A stretch of DNA of 13,462 bases, the filler included, from Pseudomonas phage phiNN, in assembly GCF_002925585.1 (NCBI RefSeq). It is 3 parts of 3 records of this genome, joined end to end, with 100 filler letters (N's around TTAATTAATTAA, not from the genome) between each part and the next. Parts side by side here need not be neighbours in the genome. Positions count along the whole stretch, not along the records: positions 10,518 to 13,462 come from NC_042070.1; 2 more parts are not named here. The stretch is one strand, 5' to 3'. Below are positions 12,137-13,109 of this stretch, piece after piece. Under the pieces are notes generated by a model. It ran no database searches. It worked only from the letters and a program-made list of their open reading frames with translations, and was not told where the DNA came from. Every line of letters starts with the position of its first letter. Within the stretch, counting starts at the first letter, position 1. The translations under genes and the position numbers were made by a program.

Positions 12137-12796
12137 GTGTCCAAGGATAGCGCCCTCGCGGTGCAATACTCGCTGCGCGCCCTCGGACAAAAGGTGCGGG
12201 CAGACGGGGTGGTTGGTAACGAGACCCGGAGCGCGATGGATGCGCTACCTCCGGCTCAGAAAAAGGCGATTGTAGAGTTGCAAGCACTCCTTCCCAAGGC
12301 TCAGTCCGCTGCTGGCCGCGTTCGGTTCTCCGACGCGGAAATCAACGGGGCTGTAGCACGGATCTCTTCGGAGATAGGTGTTCCGGCTTCTTACTACAAG
12401 TTCTTGATGCCAATCGAGAACTTCGTGGTGGCCGGTGGTATTGAAACCACCGTTTCTGGCTCGTTTCGTGGTTTGGGTCAGTTCAACCGGCAGACATGGG
12501 ATGGCCTCCGTCGTTTAGGGCGCAATCTTCCTCAGTATGAGGAGGGTACCTCCCAATTGAATGCTTCTCTGTACGCGATCGGGTTCTTGTATCTTGAGAA
12601 CAAGAAAGCCTACGAGTCATCGTTCAAAGGCCGCGTTTTCACTAACGAAATCGCGTATCTGTATCACAACCAAGGCGCTCCAGCCGCCGGACAGTACCTT
12701 ACTTCGGGTAAGTTGGTCTATCCGAAACAAAGTAACTCCGCTGTTGCGGTGGTTGCGGCTGCGAGAAATCAGCATGTCAAAGAGGGTTGGGCTTAG
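12137..12796 (+). CDS. P5: Lytic enzyme P5 (lytic transglycosylase/muramidase fold, 219 aa, GTG start)
   Basis: Phi6 P5-like, with the catalytic Glu in LMPIENF (E94) and a GLGQF motif. The GTG lies 6 nt after the gene 9 stop with no SD, suggesting coupling. Confidence 0.95.
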   Translation: MSKDSALAVQYSLRALGQKVRADGVVGNETRSAMDALPPAQKKAIVELQALLPKAQSAAGRVRFSDAEINGAVARISSEIGVPASYYKFLMPIENFVVAGGIETTVSGSFRGLGQFNRQTWDGLRRLGRNLPQYEEGTSQLNASLYAIGFLYLENKKAYESSFKGRVFTNEIAYLYHNQGAPAAGQYLTSGKLVYPKQSNSAVAVVAAARNQHVKEGWA

Positions 12797-13109
12797 CCCG
12801 GAACTGCATCGTGAATTACGGATGTTTCCCGATGTCACGAAGGGCGGTACGTTCGATATAACCATCCGGTTGACCACCGAGAATGGCGCTTTTTGGGTCA
12901 ACTACGAAGGTAGAAGTTCCATTGTGACCGTTCCCGATGTTAAGACAGCGATCGAGTTTTTGATTAAACTCTGCCGTCGACACAAGTTGTCTAACCAGGT
13001 TACGACTCGGACGCTTCTCCGAGATTTGCAACAAACGTTGCAGGATTGTGAATGTCAGTCTCATCAAGTGCCGTCGTCCAGCCACTTCATGCAGCTCAGA
13101 TTTGCGTAA
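12774..13109 (+). CDS. Hypothetical protein (111 aa from ATG 12774; alternative start 12822, 95 aa)
   Basis: Runs MSKRVGLSPELHRELRMFPDVTKGGTFDITIR to MQLRFA*. It overlaps the end of gene 5 by 23 nt and has a globular-looking beta/alpha pattern. The start codon is uncertain. Confidence 0.55.
   Translation: MSKRVGLSPELHRELRMFPDVTKGGTFDITIRLTTENGAFWVNYEGRSSIVTVPDVKTAIEFLIKLCRRHKLSNQVTTRTLLRDLQQTLQDCECQSHQVPSSSHFMQLRFA

Follow-up and report, generated by a model that had tools for sequence, protein, structure and literature searches.

Phage phi6 has been the model double-stranded RNA (dsRNA) phage for fifty years, used in packaging work, in experimental evolution and as an enveloped-virus surrogate, and teaching and annotation alike give its S segment four genes followed by a long non-coding 3' region. 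Gene 14 of phi6 is a precedent for a late addition to this map: its product P14 is small, low in abundance, non-structural and non-essential, and was recognised from sequence long after the main map. The stretch analysed here (the window; 13,462 bases) consists of segments L, M and S of the cystovirus Pseudomonas phage phiNN with spacers of N between them, and the nominally non-coding 3' region of S was found to contain an open reading frame, ORF1 (12774–13109, plus strand), encoding 111 amino acids (aa; 12.8 kDa, isoelectric point (pI) 9.3). On the strength of conservation, homologues and synteny, ORF1 is very probably a real, translated and selected gene, the fifth protein-coding gene of phiNN S. 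It differs from gene 14, which lies at the 5' end of the L segment and whose translation was shown experimentally.

A described arrangement that resembles this locus is that of phi8 (AF226853), where genes I and J (PI and PJ, 88 and 78 aa; 2569–3086) form, like ORF1 and a second conserved frame, ORF2, a small same-strand pair after gene 5, and gene I overlaps the end of P5 by 8 nucleotides (nt), much as ORF1 does by 23 nt. The likeness detected is positional only: phi8 PI aligned with the ORF1 family at an hhalign E of 0.56 and a probability of 0.1%. Genes I and J are replaceable by a marker in carrier-state constructs, according to passages of a review. For phi6 itself, the available passages of PMC12819732 (Front Microbiol 2026) list a 111-aa ORF downstream of P5 as a hypothetical gene whose product has no predicted transmembrane domain. 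It was one of many ORFs chosen there by visual inspection for a start codon, a ribosome-binding site and a length above 25 aa, and in contrast to the present analysis these passages contain no conservation or selection analysis of the phi6 ORF. In a literature search confined to papers outside subscription and to their main texts, this was the only paper mentioning the ORF, an earlier remark being possible, and the same literature yielded no report of the conservation, selection or homologues of ORF1, of the 83-aa ORF2 or of a complex between the two. The initial annotation of this DNA had stated that standard maps end at gene 5. That stands for the database records, since KJ957166.1 (phiNN S, identical to window 10518–13462) is annotated with P8, P12, P9 and P5 only and the annotation of the phi6 S records M12921 and DQ785287 likewise ends at P5, and for a 2023 review, passages of which show four S genes in the cystovirus map with non-coding regions on both sides; it fails for PMC12819732, which lists the 111-aa ORF in the passages available.

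Comparative analysis establishes the ORF1 frame as conserved, selected and syntenic. S of phiNN and S of phi6 share 83.5% identity; in phi6 M12921 the ORF1 frame is likewise open, from the same ATG to the same stop, and the two proteins, both of 111 aa, are 88–89% identical. Across the 103 codons beyond the P5 overlap, the 42 differences from M12921 fall 3/8/31 by codon position, so that the open phi6 frame with mostly third-position differences, which the initial annotation had put forward, is confirmed (31/42). Ratios of non-synonymous to synonymous substitution (dN/dS) were taken from Nei-Gojobori counts against the resequenced phi6 DQ785287, M12921 giving near-identical figures. ORF1 as a whole has 3/9/32 differences and a dN/dS of 0.12, and its 84 overlap-free codons have 3/6/28 and a dN/dS of 0.084 (binomial p = 1.7e-7); the known S genes have 0.14 (P8), 0.10 (P12), 0.14 (P9) and 0.18 (P5). 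A per-frame comparison with phi6 had been proposed as a check on the gene, and in the six-frame test over this stretch dN/dS was well below 1 in the ORF1 frame, and no other frame was open as well as constrained. The two remaining plus-strand frames contain 4–5 stops and have dN/dS above 1, the open antisense frame has a dN/dS of 6.2, and the one other frame with a low dN/dS (0.17) is interrupted by stops.

Natural variants were available from phiNN-like contigs of four public runs from four studies, found by word search and 95–99% alike. Contig X1 covers 12600–13365, X2 covers 12673–13393, and X3 and X5 cover parts of ORF1; the variant classes rest on 40 listed of 41 variable sites. Among the sites listed, all 15 in ORF1 are third-position and synonymous (0/0/15, p = 7e-8), four of seven in the adjacent P5 tail are synonymous, and four lie in the 3' tail. 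Sites common to several runs are not independent lineages, each site representing at least one event. Stops and frameshifts that would contradict a gene were sought in the relatives: ORF1 is open in phi6, and zero indels occur among the differences listed for the phiNN-like contigs. The purifying selection on an unannotated protein that the initial annotation had suggested is thus borne out by the dN/dS of ORF1, by the 15/15 synonymous variants and by homologues.

All 67 phi6 records align across the full 111 ORF1 residues (tblastn). Ten phi6 laboratory clones chosen for lower ORF1 identity, a biased set unfit for dN/dS, carry missense changes only. Five of the ten, from the two accession series DQ4794xx and JX4818xx (L017–L020, L022), carry G2276T or G2276C (phi6 S numbering), both of which cause W219C in P5 and which differ in ORF1 (G6V or G6A); this suggests that P5, and not ORF1, was the target of selection. 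L81P, which falls in the long ORF1 helix, is shared by three clones from one population.

Homologues were found well beyond phi6. A word-indexed protein search returned two candidates, phiNN itself and a phi6 cluster, and no others. A HMMER search of 1.84 billion representatives gave six proteins at E ≤ 1e-3, three of them small: P0007 (112 aa, 54% identical to ORF1, E = 6e-23), P0008 (91 aa, 34%, E = 2e-9) and P0009 (92 aa, 41%, E = 4e-5). The three long matches (448, 2972 and 966 aa), each hit in scattered short segments, proved to be LapA- and fascin-type repeat proteins and were dropped. From 1151 candidates, profile searching recovered 8 clusters (90% identity), whose contigs all measure 1027–3016 nt, and in the resulting 10-row alignment M1, P9, L11, G25, E36, W41, E45, G46, V53, L66 and R83 are invariant. 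Where protein homology persists at 34% identity, blastn found no nucleotide match. IMG/VR scans recovered phiNN and phi6 alone (2/16 and 2/57 stretches), JGI scans confirmed 0/104 stretches in the first and 1/422 in the second, and in tblastn against 50,697 phage records 68 of the 74 matching records were phiNN or phi6, the other six being chance rows (E = 6–10). Two further proteins, P0004 (111 aa), an ORF1 protein mixing phi6-type and phiNN-type residues, and P0019 (83 aa), an ORF2 protein 73% identical to that of phiNN, together suggest that more lineages, as yet uncultured, lie between phi6 and phiNN.

Synteny is seen most fully in L008, a 3016-nt metagenome contig that represents a whole S segment and ends in the cystovirus terminal sequence. 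Its gene order is P8-P12-P9-P5-ORF1-ORF2, and its P5 is 46% identical to that of phiNN. In phiNN, phi6 and L008 alike, ORF1 lies right after P5 with its start overlapping the P5 end.

More distant cystoviruses have comparable frames at the same place. Right after the P5 stop, phi13 (AF261666, 2280–2528) has an unannotated 82-aa ORF similar to ORF1 in position and size, and phiYY (KX074203, minus strand of the record, about 805–545) has one of 87 aa, 9 nt after the P5 stop. These two are 44% identical to each other and have in common with the ORF1 core the pattern E..F..W.Y.G...V-I-x-V.S..EA..I..RL. In hhalign comparisons with ORF1 they gave P = 1.3e-3 and 5e-3 singly and P = 3.7e-4 over 60 columns profile to profile, with hhalign probabilities of only 18–36% and an hmmsearch E of 0.012 in a small set. 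From these alignments both are probable distant members of the ORF1 family; hmmsearch detected no ORF2-like partner in either. ORF1 and ORF2 profiles run with hmmsearch against phi2954, phi8 and phiYY gave nothing above threshold. Cystoviruses may generally have a pair of small genes behind the lysis gene, even where the sequences are unrelated.

ORF1 begins with the ATG at 12774 and ends with the TAA at 13107–13109; a start at the ATG at 12822 would give 95 aa. The initial annotation had allowed for this later start, which the family does not favour: residues 1–16 are conserved across it and M17 is not, so we place the start of ORF1 at 12774 on the basis of the alignment. The first 23 nt of ORF1 (12774–12796, plus strand) are read in two frames, as they are also the last 23 nt of P5 (gene 5, the lytic enzyme; 12137–12796, plus strand), which is the last S gene in the KJ957166.1 annotation. 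In phiNN, phi6 and L008 the ORF1 ATG falls within the Gln-His codons CAG-CAT of P5 (CAGCATG), and the overlap is arranged identically in phi6 and is 29 nt long in L008. Inside P5, 8–11 nt before the ATG, lies a weak Shine-Dalgarno-like GAGA (12763–12766, plus strand), with a duplex energy to the anti-Shine-Dalgarno sequence of -3.0 kcal/mol, compared with -1.5 for P5 and -4.0 for P12 in phiNN S; the homologous site of L008 is GAGGA (-6.4 kcal/mol). ORF1 would be read from the polycistronic S plus strand as the fifth cistron. Because the ORF1 ATG follows a weak ribosome-binding site and precedes the P5 stop by 23 nt, we favour coupled re-initiation at the overlap, in which ribosomes finishing P5 would re-initiate at the ORF1 ATG and make a low, P5-linked amount of product. 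Such a low level could explain why the classical phi6 protein map has no band of this kind.

The same overlap and the same weak site in phiNN and phi6 would fit a programmed ribosomal frameshift late in gene 5 that yields a P5-ORF1 fusion, as would the absence of stops in the ORF1 frame ahead of its ATG, over 71 codons in phiNN and 24 in phi6. In L008, however, that frame opens only 12 nt before the ATG, and the upstream open part varies in length among phiNN, phi6 and L008; the position of the ATG is the same in all three. The good GAGGA of L008 and the conservation of residues 1–16 from the ATG, modelled at a predicted local distance difference test score (pLDDT) of about 90, likewise speak for initiation at the ATG, and we consider a frameshift very unlikely.

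Slightly less probable still is a conserved RNA element, with a part in packaging or replicating the S plus strand or in its stability or structure, in which the open frame is incidental. Cystovirus segment ends carry cis-acting signals, as passages of a review state. The final 58–79 nt of S recur at the 3' ends of L and M in phiNN, phi6 and phi13, nucleotide identity to phi6 across ORF1 is 82–90%, and an ATG-initiated ORF of at least 111 codons arose in 73 of 2000 dinucleotide shuffles of 12774–13462, so that length alone is only mildly unusual. An RNA structure would not favour third codon positions, yet differences and variants fall 3/6/28 and 0/0/15. Nor would it readily account for a protein kept at 34% identity where blastn finds nothing; Rfam gave zero matches at E ≤ 1, and the identity across ORF1 is not above that of the known genes. 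Pairs of ORFs of at least 111 and at least 83 codons occurred in 4 of 2000 shuffles of the same stretch. It is the comparative evidence, rather than ORF length, that raises ORF1 above chance.

In cystoviruses, the RNA known to exit the particle and act as mRNA is plus-strand only. A chance open frame, or a real gene in the antisense frame (12816–13112, minus strand), can practically be dismissed, for although that frame is open in phiNN, phi6 and L008 and GC-rich genomes carry many spurious long ORFs, its dN/dS is 6.2 with differences of 27/6/2 by its own codon positions, cystovirus mRNA is plus-strand, and chance cannot explain 15/15 synonymous variants or homologues at E = 6e-23.

The second conserved gene, ORF2 (13052–13303, plus strand), which would be the sixth of phiNN S, encodes an acidic protein of 83 aa (9.0 kDa, pI 4.7) and is likewise identified by conservation and homologues and by a complex model. 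Its ATG is preceded by a Shine-Dalgarno-like AGGA 7–10 nt upstream, inside ORF1 (13042–13045, plus strand; duplex energy -4.1), and its first 58 nt overlap ORF1 (13052–13109, plus strand). This overlap encodes a lineage-specific ORF1 tail that is missing in the 91–92-aa family members. Only 5 differences from phi6 occur in 57 nt of it (proportion of synonymous differences, pS, 0.09–0.14), which may reflect the limit that double coding is expected to set. Against phi6 DQ785287, ORF2 has a dN/dS of 0.29, and its 63 overlap-free codons have 15/10/32 differences by codon position and a dN/dS of 0.245 (p = 3e-4). Among the sites listed, 11 of its 15 natural variants are third-position, with 12 synonymous and 3 non-synonymous (p = 0.002). 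An ORF2 profile search recovered 5 clusters among 45 candidates, and homologues are carried by L008 and three further clusters. The L008 homologue (81 aa, 26% identical, E = 2e-4 in a single comparison) follows ORF1 without overlap, and its AAGGAG (-8.2) is the strongest ribosome-binding site on the L008 segment. The coordinates and counts of the initial annotation (666 nt after P5, 111 or 95 aa for ORF1, ORF2 at 13052–13303 with a 58-nt overlap, a 159-nt tail) were all reproduced.

In the phi6 reference, ORF2 is split. M12921 and NC_003714 (2948 nt) lack one T relative to DQ785287 after position 2652, which leaves pieces of 42 and 39–47 aa; with the extra T, DQ785287 reads through to 83 aa, as in phiNN. 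In the partial phi6 records that were listed, 549 nt pair with 548 nt of M12921, so the extra base appears general. The split is thus probably a one-base sequencing error of 1986 that still shapes annotation, judging from these records. In the passages available, PMC12819732 treats the second phi6 ORF as two frames, 42 and 39 aa long, attributable to the one-base gap in the reference sequence.

Modelling of ORF1 with AlphaFold from the 10-row alignment gave a pLDDT of 81 and a predicted template modelling score (pTM) of 0.70; a first run on four near-identical rows (pLDDT 55) was set aside as poor. The better model consists of a strand (residues 5–7), a helix (9–14), a strand (29–33), a helix (39–44), a strand (50–53), two helices (56–69 and 78–96) and a disordered tail (98–111, pLDDT below 50), and would describe a soluble alpha/beta protein with a long C-terminal helix and a disordered tail. 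The peptides quoted in the initial annotation are all present in the translation, and its secondary structure held in part, as AFWVNY, a strand in the shallow model, is a short helix in the better one.

The ORF1 and ORF2 products are predicted to bind each other. Three complex runs, with alignments of 10 and 6 rows, gave interaction scores from predicted aligned errors (ipSAE) of 0.78, 0.77 and 0.77, compared with 0.27, 0.04 and 0.00 for controls, with at least 90% of contacts in common and a partner pLDDT of at least 79. Of 80 solved complexes 58 attained the pass mark used, as did 2 of 110 mismatched pairs; with custom alignments the mark holds only roughly. As there is no solved complex of these families, the score is unlikely to stem from the model having memorised a known structure. 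The predicted interface pairs ORF1 49–54 (SSIVTV) with ORF2 77–83 (AVHLVLP) and the ORF1 helix 56–70 with ORF2 61–69, which are the best-conserved stretches of both families. In the model, the C-terminal strand VHLVLP of ORF2 would add onto the edge strand SIVTV of ORF1 to form a heterodimer.

Searches of sequence and structure libraries returned only background. The best Pfam match of ORF1 had E = 0.087, or 0.015 across 10 family members, PHROGs gave E = 0.12–0.25 and no usable match, NCBIfam gave no ORF1 match, and the best PDB sequence (SRP14) had E = 0.15, again unusable. PADLOC reported a single weak Cas11a row for one family member (E = 0.004), which was taken as chance. The Foldseek search that the initial annotation had recommended found no match to the ORF1 model at E ≤ 0.001 in PDB (best E 0.13) or BFVD (best E 0.097). 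VIA-align, run on 48,161 chains, gave a best Z of 7.2 (7shj_B, root-mean-square deviation 4.8 Å, 100 residues), which is background level, since by the tool's own statement a best Z of 7–8 is typical for models without a true match; the same holds for Rossmann-like alpha/beta lobes such as a ZnuA-type N-lobe (Z 7.2). In the ESM Atlas the best value for ORF1 was 0.77, unusable, and ORF2 had no usable match. A HicB-like (UPF0150) antitoxin fold, guessed from the beta-beta-beta-alpha order of the shallow model, was dropped; the better model orders its elements differently, no HicB-type Pfam match appeared at E ≤ 10, and none was present among the Foldseek and VIA rows shown. ORF1 also lacks what marks a spanin, namely a signal sequence, lipobox or transmembrane domain, and what marks a disruptin, a short amphipathic peptide, having a soluble alpha/beta model and a grand average of hydropathicity (GRAVY) of -0.35, although no dedicated transmembrane predictor was run.

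Several observations weigh against the reading of ORF1 and ORF2 as an expressed, interacting gene pair. The ORF1 ribosome-binding site is weak in phiNN and phi6 by duplex energy, and in the literature search no Ribo-seq or proteomic data showing ORF1 translation were found for phi6 or phiNN. These two phages are the sole cultured lineages supplying nucleotide data for dN/dS, and two of the four runs with natural variants have contig depths below 5, with possible errors. Outside phiNN, phi6 and L008, most family members, from contigs of 1027–2950 nt, are represented by protein sequence alone, and their placement on S is deduced from contig span. The pI of the family is 9.3 in two clades and 5.4–6.7 in others, so net charge is not conserved, and the libraries searched offered no family, fold or motif pointing to a function for ORF1. 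The complex score expresses model confidence obtained from shallow alignments. Finally, the sole published functional test of an ORF1 orthologue, in the passages available of PMC12819732, was negative: phi6 ORFs placed after a lambda holin-endolysin cassette showed no outer-membrane-disruptor activity in E. coli or P. syringae, with several ORFs together in the construct and their expression unverified in those passages.

As to function, we lean, tentatively, towards an accessory host-facing role that is needed in nature and not for plaques on the laboratory host, because strong natural constraint is combined with apparent laboratory dispensability and a patchy distribution. The pair would then form an accessory module acting on the host, through counter-defence, phage exclusion or control of host physiology. 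Compatible with this role are phi2954, which is without these genes and has only 74 nt after P5, leaving no room for an ORF1-type gene; the missing disruptor phenotype in the passages of PMC12819732; and a phi6 that stayed viable after losing 189 nt within the 3' 'noncoding' part of S, described without coordinates in passages of a review. Since only about 160 nt lie beyond ORF2, this deletion would have to cut at least one of ORF1 and ORF2. The dispensability in the laboratory host that the initial annotation had suggested is supported indirectly, by this deletion and by phi2954. That ORF1 instead works with P5, or regulates it, during lysis or entry appears unlikely, a part in assembly or regulation somewhat more so, and any other function would be a distinctly improbable outcome.

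Elsewhere on the segment, the 159 nt after ORF2 form the 3' untranslated tail (13304–13462, plus strand), which holds the terminal sequence common to the three segments; 666 nt in all lie beyond the P5 stop (12796). A 66-aa ORF in another frame of P5 (12075–12275, plus strand) is probably the counterpart of a phi6 66-aa ORF listed as hypothetical in the passages available of PMC12819732. Long antisense ORFs of up to 459 aa occur in the window, for example at 4731–6110 (minus strand), and minus-strand translation is not expected. The joins at 6504–6603 and 10418–10517 are artificial (N spacers around TTAATTAATTAA), and ORFs or repeats crossing them are meaningless.

A small accessory gene missed in a viral 'UTR' (untranslated region) is of a familiar kind; the ORF1 protein family is one without known relatives. 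Two further genes in this region, under selection as strong as that on structural genes, would change database annotation. Mutations from evolution experiments that were scored there as 'non-coding' or 'synonymous' need re-reading, and marker insertions in the post-P5 region may be knock-outs. ORF1 and ORF2 are candidates for phi6 functions that have no gene, such as the coinfection limit, the carrier state and the interplay with host defence, and as the pair has no relatives of known function or fold, its structure and target would be new biology. It is conceivable, if rather doubtful, that phi6-like cystoviruses carry a two-protein heterodimer of a fold family unseen elsewhere that targets the host cell and not the virion, for example by blocking an anti-RNA-phage defence or setting the coinfection limit; if so, it would be the first host-manipulation or counter-defence system described in a dsRNA phage, overlooked for decades because the region was labelled non-coding.

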